Below, one piece after another: positions 10,746 to 49,857 of a DNA stretch of 64,000 bases. This stretch comes from an uncultured Chloroflexia bacterium. GTDB lineage: Bacteria > Chloroflexota > Limnocylindria > Limnocylindrales > CSP1-4. The stretch covers positions 480,001-544,000 of the forward strand of contig CAVVYR010000006.1 in NCBI GenBank assembly GCA_963752475.1, written 5' to 3'. The position numbers and the translations under genes are program-made. Within the stretch, counting starts at the first letter, position 1. The number at the start of each line of letters is the position of its first letter. Under the pieces are notes generated by a model that saw only the letters and a program-made list of their open reading frames with translations, searched no databases and was not told where the DNA came from.

Positions 10746-10775
10746 TTGACACTCGGGGTGGGGGACTGATAGGAT
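10746..10775 (+). promoter_or_regulatory. Sigma70-type promoter of the hrcA-grpE-dnaK operon
   Basis: TTGACA (10746-10751), 18 nt, TAGGAT (10770-10775) with extended TG. Confidence 0.8.
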
Positions 10776-32762: not shown

Positions 32763-33547
32763 CGGCTCGCGACCACCTGCGCAGCATCCTGCGTGTGGTG
32801 GAGCACCACGCCATGGTCTATCGCCGGACCTGGCACGGGACCGTCTTCTCCACGTTCCTCAACCCCGTCCTCTATCTCGCGGCCCTGGGCGTGGGCCTGG
32901 GTGCCTTCGTCGACCAGTCCAACCCTGCCGGTATCGAAGGTGTGCCCTACGCCACCTTCCTCGCACCGGGCATCCTCGTGGCCACGGCCATGAACAGCGC
33001 CACCGGAGAATCGACGTATCCGGTCATGGCCGGCATCCGCTGGCTCAAGACGTACGTGGCCATGATCATCTCGCCGCTCGACGCGCGGCACGTGGCCACC
33101 GGCCAACTGCTGTGGGCGGGCGTGCGCGTGACCCTCGGCGGCATCGTCTTCCTGGCGGTCATGATCGCCTTCGGGGCCACCGACCTGGCGCACGCGGCCT
33201 TGATGCTGCCGGTGACGGTGCTCACGGGGCTGGCCTTCGCGGCACCCATCCAGGCCTTCGCCGCGGCGCAGAAGAACGACACGCCGTTCGCCTGGCTCTT
33301 CCGCTTCGTGATCATGCCCATGTTCATCTTCAGCGGCACGTTCTTCCCCATCAGCCAGCTGCCCGAGCTGCTGCAGTACGTGGCCTATGCCACCCCGCTG
33401 TGGCACGCCGTCTCGCTCTCGCGCGGCATCGCGCTGGACATGCTCGATCCGGCGCTGGCGGTCGTGAACCTCGCGTACCTCGGCGCCCTCGTGGCGGTCG
33501 GCCTGGCCTGGTCGTACCGCACGTTCAGCCGCAGGCTGACGGAGTAG
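32759..33547 (+). CDS. ABC-2 permease (NodJ-like) 1
   Basis: Y..FLAPG, PMFIFSGTFFP, TPLWH. Confidence 0.9.
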
Positions 33548-33551
33548 CGCG

Positions 33552-34340
33552 ATGTTCATCACCACGCGCTTCATCCCCACCCGAGCCCTCGGTGGCTCGC
33601 GAGCCCACAAGGTCTTCGAGCGCAACGTCATCGTCTACCGACGCGCCTGGACCATCATCGTCAGTGGCTTCTTCGAGCCGGTCTTCTACCTGCTGGGCAT
33701 CGGCTTCGGCCTGGGTACGCTCGTGGGTGACGTCGGCGACATCCCGTATGCGGCCTTCGTGGCGCCGGGACTCATGGCCACCGCGGCCATGAACGGCGCG
33801 CTCTTCGAGTCGACCTTCAATCTCTTCTTCAAGCTGAAGTACGCCAAGACGTTCGACGCCATCCTGTCCACGCCCCTGGGGCCGTCGGACATCGCGGTGG
33901 GTGAGGTCAGCTGGGCGCTCACCCGCGGCCTGCTCTATGCCATCGCCTTCCTGGCGGTGATGCTGGTCCTTGGGTTGGTGCTCTCGCCCCTGGGCCTGCT
34001 GATGGTCCCGGGCGCGCTCCTCATCGGTCTGGCGGCGTCGGCGGTCGGCATGGCCGCGACGACGTATATGCGCAAGTGGCAGGACTTCGACATGGTCACG
34101 GTCGTAGTCATGCCGATGTTCCTCTTCAGCGGCACGTTCTACCCGATCTCGGTCTACCCCGACTGGTTGGAGACGTTCGTCGAGTTCACACCGCTCTACC
34201 GCGGCGTGCACATGATGCGGTCGTTCTCGACCGGGGAGGTCGACGCGATGATCCTCTTCGACATCGCCTACCTCTCGGTCATGGGTATCGTGGGCCTGGC
34301 CATCACCGCTCGCCGGCTACGCGGGCTGTTGCTCAAGTAG
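33552..34340 (+). CDS. ABC-2 permease (NodJ-like) 2
   Basis: FVAPG, PMFLFSGTFYP, TPLY. Confidence 0.9.
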   Translation: MFITTRFIPTRALGGSRAHKVFERNVIVYRRAWTIIVSGFFEPVFYLLGIGFGLGTLVGDVGDIPYAAFVAPGLMATAAMNGALFESTFNLFFKLKYAKTFDAILSTPLGPSDIAVGEVSWALTRGLLYAIAFLAVMLVLGLVLSPLGLLMVPGALLIGLAASAVGMAATTYMRKWQDFDMVTVVVMPMFLFSGTFYPISVYPDWLETFVEFTPLYRGVHMMRSFSTGEVDAMILFDIAYLSVMGIVGLAITARRLRGLLLK

Positions 34341-34344
34341 CGCG

Positions 34345-34546
34345 CCCTGCTACGACCTGACCAGCGGCCAGGCACCGGCCAGACCGAGGCGCCGTCCTGA
34401 TCGCTCGGAACGGCGCCTTGAGCGGCGGCGGGAGGGTCAAGGTCCCGGGGCCTCGGTCCGGACGTCTTCACGGCGTAGACGTCCTGCCAGGGAAGGGGAG
34501 AGGCGAGTCTTCTTCCCTGTCGTACGTGCGTCTCAGTACGTAGTAC
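34345..34546 (-). ncRNA. Candidate novel structured small RNA
   Basis: Directly downstream of a near-consensus promoter, five complementary stems, C-rich loops, no credible ORF; boundaries approximate. Confidence 0.55.
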
Positions 34547-34552
34547 CTACGG

Positions 34553-34581
34553 AGTCTATGGACCGACTACGTACGTGTCAA
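34553..34581 (-). promoter_or_regulatory. Sigma70-type promoter for the candidate sRNA
   Basis: Minus strand TTGACA (34581-34576), 17 nt, TAGACT (34558-34553). Confidence 0.75.
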
Positions 34582-34616
34582 GCCGGCTGGGGCTACACCG
34601 CGTCCCGGTCGCCTTC

Positions 34617-34767
34617 CTCATCCCCGAGTGGCTCGACTCGACGCGCCGACGGCCCGACTGCAGGATCCGAGGCTTGAGGTGGCTGAAACTGACGATCCGA
34701 GCCCGGTTGAGGCTGAGACGAGGCACTTCCGCGTCTTGACTGTCGAGTCCAGCTAGCTGGGGATAGC
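34617..34767. mobile_element. MITE/REP-like palindromic element, copy 1
   Basis: Imperfect terminal inverted repeats ATCCCC...GACTCGAC / GTCGAGTC...GGGGAT; similar to 49705-49857. Confidence 0.6.
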
Positions 34768-34789
34768 CGCAGGAGGTGGAGCGCGTCGA

Positions 34790-36052
34790 TCAAGCCCGCT
34801 TCGGGCGGACGCCGAACAGCCGCCTGGCAGCGCTGAGGTCACCCCAGTCGATGCGGCTGACCCCACCGAAGGCCGCGTACTCCGCAAGTGCGGTGCGCAT
34901 GGCCTCCACGAAGCCCGGCTCCTGGCGAGGGGAGAAGGAACGCTCCCACCACAGCCCAAGGACACGGATCGTGCCGCTCTCGCGATCGATGCGCGGCTCG
35001 ATGCGGCCGACCAGGCGGTCGCCCCACAGTAGCGGCAGCACGTAGTAGCCCCAGCGGCGCTTGGCCTTGGGCACGTATACCTCCCAGACGTAGTCGAAGT
35101 CGAAGAGGTTCCGCAACAGATCGCGGTCCCATACGAGCGGGTCGAGCGGAGCCAGGAACACGACCGATGGAGAGGCAAGATCGGCGGCCGCATCGGCAGC
35201 GCGTAGCTGAGTCGATTCCTCGGCCAGCACGAATCGCCGTCCGCGCACGCCCTCGACCTCCACCGGGATGAGCGCGCCAGCATCCAGCAACTCCTCGCGC
35301 AGCTCCGCGCGGGTGGGAGTGCTGGGCGGGTCCGTGGCGCGCAACTTGCTCGCAGGGCCGAGCCCGTACCAGAGCGCGTACTCGCCGCTGGCCCCGAGCA
35401 GGCCGTGCGCCCGATAGCGCGAGAGCATCTTGTGGCGCAGCTGTTCGCGCTCGGATCGCTCATCACCCAGAAGCTCGGCCGGGAAGACCCGCTCGGTGAG
35501 GTCGAAGTACCTCCGGTTGCCCTCGCGCCTGTCGAGGCTTACGACCCCGGCCTCCCAGAGGGCCTCGAGGATGGCCCGCACCTCGGTCGTCGGACCCCAG
35601 TACCAGGAGACCTTGCCCTTTCGCTCGAAGTCGAGGCTCGTGAGCGGTCCTTCGGCGCGGATGCGCTCCAACACGTGCTCCATGGCCTCGCGATGACGCA
35701 CGAACGCATCTTCGGTGTGGATGCGGGTGAACCGCGCCCACGTGTGGCGATGCCAGGGCAGCTCGGAACTCGGGACCAGGCTGAGCATCTTGTTGTAGGT
35801 TTCGAAGAGTTCGCGCGTGCCGTAGAGCAGCTCGCTGGTCCACTCGATCTCGTAGTCGCGAACGCGTGCATGGAGTGCCAGGTCATGGTTGCGGCCGGCC
35901 ACCGCCAGCGGGTCGAACTGGATCGAGCCGAGCCGCTCGAACACCGCCCGCACGCCGTCGAGCCCGGCGGTCTGGGCGCGGGCAGGCGCGAGCATGTGGC
36001 GCTGCACGAGGAAACGGCGCGCACCGGCCGCGCTGACGACGATGGGGTCCAT
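34790..36052 (-). CDS. YcaQ/AlkZ-family (HTH_42) DNA crosslink glycosylase
   Basis: IQFDPL (QxD), FLAPLDPLVWDR, FDFDYVWEVYVP..KRRWGYYVLP. Confidence 0.88.
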   Translation of the reverse strand: MDPIVVSAAGARRFLVQRHMLAPARAQTAGLDGVRAVFERLGSIQFDPLAVAGRNHDLALHARVRDYEIEWTSELLYGTRELFETYNKMLSLVPSSELPWHRHTWARFTRIHTEDAFVRHREAMEHVLERIRAEGPLTSLDFERKGKVSWYWGPTTEVRAILEALWEAGVVSLDRREGNRRYFDLTERVFPAELLGDERSEREQLRHKMLSRYRAHGLLGASGEYALWYGLGPASKLRATDPPSTPTRAELREELLDAGALIPVEVEGVRGRRFVLAEESTQLRAADAAADLASPSVVFLAPLDPLVWDRDLLRNLFDFDYVWEVYVPKAKRRWGYYVLPLLWGDRLVGRIEPRIDRESGTIRVLGLWWERSFSPRQEPGFVEAMRTALAEYAAFGGVSRIDWGDLSAARRLFGVRPKRA

Positions 36053-36125
36053 CGCCTGAGCATAGGGGTCCCGAAGTAGCGGCCGCGAGGCCAACCGCTC
36101 GACCTTCCCTATACTTCCCATCTGC

Positions 36126-37301
36126 ATGGCCACATCCCGCGACTACTACGAGATCCTGGGGCTTGAGCGCGGCGCCAGCGACGAGGACATCAAGCGCTCC
36201 TTTCGGAAGCTGGCCCAGCAATGGCACCCCGACGTCAACACCGACCCTGACGCTGACGCGCGTTTCAAGGAGATCAACGAGGCCTACCAGGTCCTGTCCG
36301 ATCCCCAACGCCGGCAGCAGTACGACATGTTCGGTCGGGCTGGCGTCGGTGGCACCGGCGCGGGCGCCGAGGGCTACGGCCCGTTCGGCGGCTTCCAGGG
36401 CTTCGGCGACATCTTCGACGCCTTCTTCGGTGGCGCTGCCGCCGGAGGTGCTGGTGGACGCCGCACGCGCCGCCCCGCCGGCGCCGACCTTCGCTATGAC
36501 CTGCAGCTGACCTTCGAGGAGGCCGTCTTCGGGGCGGAGAAGGAACTCTCCTTCAGCGCCCTCGATACCTGCGACACATGCGATGGCTCCGGCGCCGAGG
36601 AGGGTTCCGAACCCATCTCGTGCCCCCAGTGCGACGGCAGTGGCGAGGTACGTGAGGTGCGCAACACGCTGCTCGGCCAGATGGTCAACGTCACGCCCTG
36701 CGGTCGCTGCCGCGGCACGGGCCAGGTCGTCGAGAAGCCCTGCCCCACCTGTGCCGGGCAGGGTCGCGCCGAGCGCAAACGCACCCTGCGTGTGAGCGTG
36801 CCGCCCGGCATCGATGACGGCCACCAGATCCGCCTCACCGGCGAAGGGGAGGCGGCACCCCGCGGCGGCACCCCCGGCAACCTCTACGTCGTGACCCACG
36901 TGGAAGAGCATCCGCAGCTCAAGCGCGACGGTACCGAGCTCTACCTCGAGCTCACCTTGTCGATGACGCAGGCGGCTCTGGGCGCCGACATCCCCATCAT
37001 CACGCCCGACGGCGAGGAGATGCTGGAGGTCAAGGCCGGCACGCAGCCCGGGACCGAGATCCGTCGTCGTGGCAAGGGCGTCCCGCACTTGCGCCGCAAG
37101 GGCGCTCGCGGCGACCTCCATGTGCTGGTCGACATCGAGGTGCCCAAGGACCTCAGCGATCGGCAGCGCGAGCTACTCGAGGAGCTGGCCGCGGAGTCGG
37201 GAGAGCTTGCGGCTGATGGCGAGACGGCCGTGGCTGACGGGCCGCGCACGAAGCATGGCAAGCGCTCGCTGGGCGACCGCATCAAGGACGCCATCGGCTA
37301 G
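36126..37301 (+). CDS. dnaJ: Chaperone DnaJ
   Basis: HPD J-domain, G/F-rich region, four CxxCxGxG repeats. Confidence 0.98.
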   Translation: MATSRDYYEILGLERGASDEDIKRSFRKLAQQWHPDVNTDPDADARFKEINEAYQVLSDPQRRQQYDMFGRAGVGGTGAGAEGYGPFGGFQGFGDIFDAFFGGAAAGGAGGRRTRRPAGADLRYDLQLTFEEAVFGAEKELSFSALDTCDTCDGSGAEEGSEPISCPQCDGSGEVREVRNTLLGQMVNVTPCGRCRGTGQVVEKPCPTCAGQGRAERKRTLRVSVPPGIDDGHQIRLTGEGEAAPRGGTPGNLYVVTHVEEHPQLKRDGTELYLELTLSMTQAALGADIPIITPDGEEMLEVKAGTQPGTEIRRRGKGVPHLRRKGARGDLHVLVDIEVPKDLSDRQRELLEELAAESGELAADGETAVADGPRTKHGKRSLGDRIKDAIG

Positions 37302-49704: not shown

Positions 49705-49857
49705 GCCATCCCCTGATGGCTGAACTCGACGTCGGTTGACGCCGAACTGCTCCATCTCAGCCTCCAGCAGGCTCGGAGCGCCAACCTCGGTCCCCACCGG
49801 GCTGAGACCGCGCACTCCTGGCCCCGGGCTGGTCGAGTCCAGCCAGCAGGGGATGGC
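49705..49857. mobile_element. MITE/REP-like palindromic element, copy 2
   Basis: 26-bp terminal inverted repeats (24/26) at 49705-49730 and 49832-49857; inner TCTCAGCC/GGCTGAGA. Confidence 0.65.

Follow-up and report, generated by a model that had tools for sequence, protein, structure and literature searches.

Within a 64-kb window of an uncultured Chloroflexota genome (the whole stretch of DNA analysed, from contig CAVVYR010000006.1), we identified a gene for a conserved structured RNA of ~175 nt on the minus strand (34372-34546), an extent given by a covariance-model match together with a leader that is conserved up to the promoter. The RNA is previously uncatalogued, and it is restricted to a single clade within one uncultured genus of Candidatus Limnocylindrales (Chloroflexota). 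We propose that it is a lineage-specific small RNA (sRNA), running from 34546 to ~34372, whose C-rich tract would occlude ribosome-binding sites in trans. For this whole chain we estimate a probability of about 0.5, and our confidence that a conserved structured RNA gene lies on this strand is much higher. A first-pass annotation, made from the letters of the stretch, had placed a structured sRNA here, and all the sequence elements it listed are present where it had placed them.

In the proposed mechanism, a strong sigma-70-type promoter with TACGTA-type palindromes would drive the RNA, and a DNA-binding regulator would act on the palindromes. The RNA would begin with the hairpin P0, after which a second and variable one, P1, presents a conserved C/U-rich tract; a conserved 3' domain would come next, consisting of P2 and a three-way junction (P3, P3a and P4) that ends in a long G+C hairpin. 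The tract would pair with the purine-rich ribosome-binding sites of mRNAs made elsewhere and block their translation, while the 3' domain would give termination, stability or a handle for a protein.

Conservation, strand and coding content of the RNA

Our first DNA search recovered the stretch in genomes of the same genus and in none of 16 sister-family genomes; a match of that search in genome G007 was a coding-region false positive and was discarded. For an alignment of 11 core sequences (A1), RNAalifold predicted 32 pairs, 11 of them with compensatory changes, and we built a covariance model (R1) from this alignment. With scores of 88-133 bits, R1 matches 18 copies, which are spread over 17 of the 49 genomes of the genus. 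The match in this genome, where the RNA is single-copy, covers 34372-34508 at 103.5 bits. An order-wide sample gave no match to the model, either among 103 genomes from 25 other genera of the family or among 42 sister-family genomes. A specific pattern scan of metagenome contigs yielded five model-positive contigs, four of them distinct, and a looser pattern scan of genome contigs gave four model-positive sequences among the 120 matches listed, from which no distribution is drawn.

Across the 22-copy alignment A4, fitted like the 18-copy one to the covariance model, 95.4% of 700 pair cells are standard, a share that falls to 38-48% when partners are slid by one to three columns. Changes on both sides are seen in 13 of the 32 pairs (52 cells), and none of 500 column shuffles does as well. 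The corresponding 18-copy alignment is 95.5% paired, with 13 compensatory pairs and 46 such cells. Covariation is located in P2, P3a and the tip of P4. The pattern that retrieved the four metagenome rows fixes the bases of P3 and lower P4, so these rows cannot test covariation there.

These comparisons also orient the RNA. Read as given, 95.5% of cells are paired, compared to 90.6% on the opposite strand, with 40 G-U cells versus 12 A-C cells; the minus-strand preference that the first-pass annotation had read from G-U pairing in a single stem is thus found family-wide. It had also seen no credible open reading frame (ORF) in ~200 nt, and we agree: the only minus-strand ORFs at the site are a GTG ORF of 67 amino acids (aa), which extends into the ABC permease gene, and one of 35 aa. 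No conserved ORF was found in 14 stand-alone copies, in which ORFs of at least 12 codons vary in place and frame and two copies have none, and we rejected a small-ORF reading on this lack of conservation.

Rfam 15 gave no match at gathering score in the whole window, as expected of the undescribed RNA first proposed. At E values up to 10, the interval 34200-34850 returned five noise matches only, the best of which, KDPG-aldolase, scored 20.4 bits against a cut-off of 54.6 and lay mostly outside the conserved core.

Promoter, leader and fold

The RNA gene is preceded on its own strand by a -35 hexamer TTGACA (34576-34581) and, at a spacing of 17, a -10 hexamer TAGACT (34553-34558). This is the sole sigma-70-like site in 33500-35500 (one found versus 0.1 expected from shuffles), and it was rightly ranked among the closest matches to consensus, being one of two sites on either strand of the 64-kb window with at least 10 of 12 matches. 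The other near-consensus promoter is at 10746 on the plus strand (TTGACA-18-TAGGAT, 10/12 matches). The pattern TTGAC[AG]-N17/18-TAnnnT lies upstream of the RNA in 18/18 genome copies and likewise in the metagenome copies, bearing out the idea that the RNA has a promoter of its own. All 18 genome copies also retain a leader rich in TACGTA. Promoter geometry predicts a transcription start at 34546, the seventh base after the -10 hexamer. The promoter lies 37-94 nt from the model start in 14 of the 18 copies and ~670-680 nt from it in the remaining four (G001, G059, G010 and G044).

Operator-like palindromes occupy 34536-34577 (minus strand): CACGTACGTAG (34577-34567) stands beside the -35 hexamer and CCGTAGGTACTACGTAC (34552-34536) lies across the predicted start. 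Relatives show near-invariance in two blocks, CACGTACGTAG next to the -35 hexamer and TCCGTAGGTA(C/G)TACGTA, which directly follows the -10. Conservation of these blocks extends to bases upstream of the predicted start, a pattern that suggests recognition as DNA by a protein. The 15-mer TTGACACGTACGTAG, with at most one mismatch, occurs across the 49 genus genomes at this locus only, plus one coding-region match, and is unique in this genome. As the 15-mer is confined to the RNA locus, we rejected the idea of a promoter regulon, and the regulator cannot be inferred from one. A match to the promoter pattern in genome G046 was a coding-region false positive.

The lexA promoter of this genome (G000, contig C8, ~342700-342760, outside the window) has the same layout as the RNA promoter, TTGACA-17-TACTGT, and this promoter consensus is therefore in use in the organism. 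The lexA promoter spacer holds a LexA box of the Gram-positive type, CGAACAGGTGTTCG. This box is unlike the TACGTA palindromes, and SOS control of the RNA gene was rejected.

Downstream of the predicted start, a 5' hairpin of UACGUA repeats, P0 (34521-34540), is predicted here and in most of the 14 stand-alone relatives folded. It is followed by P1 (CAGGGAAG/CUUCCCUG, 34519-34512 / 34495-34488), whose loop holds the C-rich tract CCUCUCCCC (34503-34495); only some members of the RNA family are predicted to form a P1-like hairpin of G-rich and C-rich arms. The hairpin P2 (GGACGUCU/AGACGUCC, 34484-34477 / 34467-34460, loop ACGCCGUGA) has seven pairs, five with compensatory changes. Its loop reads GCCGUG in 14 of the 22 copies, GUCGUG in one and GCCGCC in three, with GUUCYG/GUUUCG in the four copies that carry the ORF described below.

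The three-way junction (34381-34459) is closed by P3, in which GGACCGAGGC (34459-34450) pairs with GCCUCGGUCU (34390-34381). P3 comprises six consensus pairs, with 98.5% of cells paired, one-sided changes and an outer pair that is G-U in 14/22 copies; the slightly shorter arms first drawn for this helix, GACCGAGG/CCUCGGUC (34458-34451 / 34389-34382), are present in the sequence. Within the junction, P3a (CGGGA/UCCCG, 34447-34443 / 34433-34429, loop CCUUGACCC) has five pairs, four with compensatory changes. P4 (34387-34418) is a long G+C hairpin of 14 pairs, the GGCGCCG hairpin GGCGCCGUUCC...GGACGGCGCC, after which the strand reads UCGGUCUGGCC. The lower 7-8 pairs of P4 are invariant and four tip pairs carry compensatory changes. 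P4 is a possible terminator or 3' stabiliser.

Most of the stems drawn in the first-pass annotation survived comparison. P2, P3 and P4 are supported by homologs, the last including the hairpin it had placed at 34415-34408 / 34397-34390, and P1 holds for part of the family. Two helices fell away: the CCUUGA/UCAAGG stem is not kept in relatives, where P3a is the conserved alternative, and the proposed closing helix UACGAC/GUCGUA (34524-34519 / 34356-34351) draws on sequence 3' of P3 that is variable and in some relatives almost absent.

In the P3a loop (34434-34442), a GACC motif (UGACC or AGACC) occurs in 17/22 copies. It repeats part of the GGACCGA arm of P3 (34450-34459) and could pair with the UCGGUCU strand in place of that arm, which would produce an alternative fold or a switch.

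The C-rich tract and its possible targets

Two exposed C-rich loops had been described at first. One stands as a conserved and probably unpaired C-rich tract; the other, CCCUCCC, is largely the 3' arm of P3a. A CCUCY, CUCCC or CCCUC motif lies at most 24 nt 5' of P2 in 21 of 22 copies, and over all copies these 24 nt are 49% C (247/503) and 12% G (59/503). We folded 14 stand-alone copies, and in 11 of the 13 in which the tract was found its predicted mean unpaired probability is 0.43-0.99. According to these models, the C-rich tract 5' of P2 is the one conserved unpaired element in the RNA. The 16S rRNA of this genome ends 3' in GGAUCACCUCCUUUCU, which the tract resembles; such a likeness would suit pairing with ribosome-binding sites.

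Several observations weigh against an RNA that acts through this tract in trans. One metagenome copy (L180) lacks any CCUC-type motif, and in two copies (G005 and G048) the tract is predicted to be mostly paired (0.24 and 0.30). A target scan over 3,487 predicted start regions, drawn from crude gene calls, gave energies with a mean of -19.1, a standard deviation of 4.8 and a best value of -37.2 kcal/mol. These energies form a continuum with no outlier, and neighbouring genes rank 360th or lower; complementarity of the tract to Shine-Dalgarno (SD) sequences is therefore generic, and given this continuum and the crude gene calls we rejected the target prediction as uninformative.

The transcript itself, its ends and its strand of transcription are predictions from promoter and fold. 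Three RNA libraries, which come from two studies, include contigs with relatives' versions of 34375-34584. These libraries also contain the ABC gene, and one contig spans the promoter. Contigs give neither strand nor ends, so they are uninformative on transcription either way. A search of sequencing runs returned small shares only (0.09-0.17 of sampled words), and four runs were examined as contigs. At the 3' end, a simple scan of 33500-35500 for intrinsic terminators found no sites, under a canonical model that may not be that of the phylum, and the run UCGGUCUGGCC after P4 is poor in U.

The most invariant parts of the RNA, P3 and lower P4, never covary, and their conservation could have a cause other than RNA pairing. 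This would suit a protein-binding or ribonucleoprotein RNA, in which the P3/P4 stems and the P2 loop (GCCGUGA) would be recognized by a protein that is sequestered, guided or scaffolded and the C-rich tract would be secondary. Invariance does go beyond the needs of pairing, with no variation at all in 8 of the 14 pairs of P4 and 3 of the 6 pairs of P3; the recurrence of particular P2-loop and P3a-loop sequences and the copy that lacks the anti-SD-type motif point the same way. However, no candidate partner gene is linked to the locus, whose neighbours encode an AlkZ-like glycosylase, an ABC-2 transporter and DnaJ, and the invariance may reflect shallow sampling of a single genus. We regard a protein-binding role of this kind as rather unlikely.

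The single-sequence fold is also unremarkable, at z = -1.88 for the minus strand and z = -2.35 for the plus strand, so the case for more than chance rests on comparison. Weak fold statistics, and an apparent origin as an mRNA shell (see below), could be taken as signs of a non-functional element: a chance promoter match, a decaying remnant or a small-protein gene. Such readings are close to refuted, given the 13 compensatory pairs, a promoter kept in every genome copy, the lack of a conserved frame and flanking non-core sequence that diverges freely.

The locus and the proposed origin of the RNA

The RNA gene lies between an AlkZ-like DNA glycosylase gene (34790-36133, minus strand), upstream on the same strand, and an ABC-2 permease gene (33552-34340, plus strand), which is convergent with it as first described. 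About 200 nt separate the promoter from the permease stop codon, and 18/18 genome copies share this intergenic position. A tail that is not conserved (34341-34371), varying in length and sequence among relatives, connects the RNA core to the permease stop codon. The AlkZ-like frame, identified through its RLFG motif, stops at the TGA inside the -35 TTGACA in 13 of 18 relatives. This genome differs, in that a repeat of ~209 nt intervenes and the frame does not end in the hexamer.

The repeat is an insertion specific to this genome (34582-34789, minus strand), from the AlkZ-like stop codon to the RNA promoter with GGCTTGA at either side, and is absent at this position from relatives. It belongs to a dispersed repeat of ~160-200 nt, to which this genome has 13 further matches (~12 places) that are 68-93% identical, one of them near 49705-49855 in the window; it looks like a miniature inverted-repeat transposable element (MITE) or a repetitive extragenic palindromic (REP)-type element. 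Separately, the bin of genome G053 holds two AlkZ-RNA-ABC loci (L033 and L034) on different contigs with different RNA subtypes, one nearly identical to that of G051; with contamination given as 5%, these are probably two strains binned together rather than a duplication.

The four genome copies with a distant promoter carry a 200-aa ORF between the leader and the RNA core. The ORF has a signal-peptide-like N-terminus and no Pfam match, and in these relatives the RNA core is its 3' untranslated region (UTR): the CCUCCUCCC tract begins 4-6 nt beyond the stop codon, and the SD of the ORF is of the GAGGGGAG type. This genome has no homolog of the ORF. Five well-assembled genomes of the genus that lack the RNA keep the AlkZ/ABC pair, tail to tail. 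Three of these have spacers of ~25-80 nt, and two hold a homolog of 184 aa (29% identity to the 200-aa ORF, E 1e-13) with unrelated flanks. Since the flanking genes stand tail to tail in relatives without it, the RNA is not needed as a spacer.

The 184-200-aa proteins form a predicted secreted family without Pfam match that ends in CP(A)GIL (L014 867-1469, plus; L156 815-1369, minus; L157 3229-3783, plus). Some genomes of the genus have a member of this family at the AlkZ/ABC intergenic site, whether or not they carry the RNA. In four relatives (L014 2049-2246, plus; L007; L160; L168), a second copy of the TACGTA promoter and leader drives a small ORF of ~65-85 aa with the conserved C-terminus C(P/S)ACLGIGC(S/N/G)D(C/R)C..GR, whose product may be the precursor of a cysteine-rich peptide or else bind metal. 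An overlapping 225-aa ORF is broken in two of these four, and in three the small ORF is followed by a conserved ORF of ~150 aa that is rich in arginine.

In a tree built on AlkZ and ABC, the RNA-bearing loci form one clade (SH-aLRT 96), and the ORF-bearing loci are nested within it (96) as sister to G021 (95). Constraining the RNA-only loci, a group named after seeing the first tree, to be monophyletic lowers the log-likelihood by 46 units, and their monophyly is rejected (p-AU 0.0015). RNA-only subgroups differ from one another in the stretch between leader and C-rich tract. The ORF was either lost several times or regained once. With ORF copies nested among RNA-only copies and no ORF homolog in this genome, selection on the RNA appears to be independent of the ORF. 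By its sequence the RNA-only form looks to be the 5' leader plus the 3' UTR of a secreted-protein mRNA.

These relationships lead us to a tentative account, on balance a doubtful one, of an sRNA being born from an mRNA. A secreted-protein gene would have gained a TACGTA-operator promoter and a structured C-rich 3' UTR, the ORF would have been excised, possibly several times, and the SD arm and the anti-SD tract of the 3' UTR would have become P1. The remaining shell of promoter, leader and 3' domain would have been kept as an autonomous riboregulator, maybe a locus-specific switch responsive to stress or drugs. We raise this last point because of the kinds of neighbouring gene, AlkZ-like and ABC-2, which we take to be associated with self-protection against genotoxic natural products, and because the promoter type is confined to the locus.

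The same arrangement can be read as a cis-acting 3'-end module, in which the 3' domain is a terminator, insulator or stabiliser serving the AlkZ-like mRNA, the transcript from the RNA promoter and that of the convergent ABC-2 operon alike. The remainder would be an mRNA shell left after ORF loss, and there would be no distant targets. Where the AlkZ-like frame stops in the -35 hexamer, AlkZ transcripts must enter the element; the core lies 0-60 nt from the convergent permease stop codon in 18/18 genome copies, and the invariance of P3 and lower P4 and the place of the core as a 3' UTR in the ORF-bearing relatives agree with such a module. But the short spacers of RNA-less relatives make an elaborate insulator unneeded, the scan found no canonical terminator, and a terminator leaves unexplained why promoter, leader and C-rich tract are conserved in 14 ORF-less copies. 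We consider the module unlikely.

The convergent layout and the closeness of the permease stop to the core would also allow cis-antisense action or transcriptional interference on the ABC-2 operon, with polymerase and RNA entering the 3' end of the operon or overlapping 3' ends being processed as a duplex; read-through by the ABC mRNA would place the P4 palindrome in both transcripts. The conserved part of the RNA, however, stops short of the ABC ORF, with an intervening tail that is not conserved, and the conserved P2 and P3a fold and the C-rich tract would be left unexplained, which makes this distinctly improbable. A trans-acting sRNA with a C-rich tract is the reading that we favour.

Comparison with known small RNAs

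To our knowledge almost no regulatory RNAs have been described in Chloroflexota, and our full-text searches found no paper on a small RNA in Limnocylindria or on a C-rich sRNA in Chloroflexi. This would be a well-supported RNA family, its promoter, fold and distribution all defined, and could extend RNA family catalogues and help to annotate these abundant uncultured bacteria. The mRNA form (promoter, ORF and structured 3' UTR) and the ORF-less form at one site make a clear natural series for the origin of sRNAs from UTRs. Practical weight is limited by uncultured hosts, a range of one clade of one genus and a function that is inferred.

The first-pass annotation had likened the RNA to 6C (RF01066) of Actinobacteria, a small G+C-rich RNA with its own transcription and two hairpins, each with a run of C in its loop, whose exposed C-rich sequence is thought to pair with G-rich mRNA sites. 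Both are small G+C-rich RNAs with their own promoter and a C-rich element, transcription here being predicted from sequence. The likeness is one of analogy: the RF01066 model has no match even at E values up to 10, and the host is a member of Chloroflexota, not Actinobacteria. In place of two C-rich hairpin loops, the Chloroflexota RNA has one conserved C-rich tract 5' of P2, a P2 loop that is mostly YUGCCGUGA and a different 3' domain, the three-way junction, in which the second tract first described is a stem arm of P3a. The RNA fails every test of 6C membership that we ran.

Origins in mRNA are known from other systems. sRNAs of the DapZ/MicL type derive from 3' UTRs and have their own promoter at the end of an upstream ORF. 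Similarly, 13 of 18 relatives have the promoter over the last codons and stop of the upstream same-strand gene, although not in this genome, where the repeat separates promoter and AlkZ-like gene, and four relatives carry the RNA core as the 3' UTR of an ORF. The difference is that the Chloroflexota RNA retains both ends of an mRNA, the 5' leader and the 3' UTR, without its ORF. In the icaR mRNA of Staphylococcus aureus, an anti-SD motif in the 3' UTR pairs with the mRNA's own SD. The four ORF-bearing relatives have both a C-rich tract after the stop and an SD, whereas most family members have no ORF. In the three copies scored, composition-matched shuffles gave duplexes as good in 9/300 (G001), 126/300 (G010) and 143/300 (G044) cases, so the SD/3'-UTR duplex beats shuffles in one copy of three, which leaves pairing of the tract with the ORF's own SD doubtful.

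RsaE/RoxS of Firmicutes and the csRNAs of streptococci have regulator-controlled promoters, and their C-rich or anti-SD motifs block ribosome-binding sites in trans. Those RNAs are shorter and have canonical terminators, whereas we found no U-tract terminator here and no similarity to them in sequence or model. By analogy, the Chloroflexota RNA would work most like these C-rich-seed sRNAs (6C, RsaE/RoxS and csRNAs): as in that trans-acting class, 14 of 18 copies have their own promoter and no ORF, with an ORF intervening in the other four.

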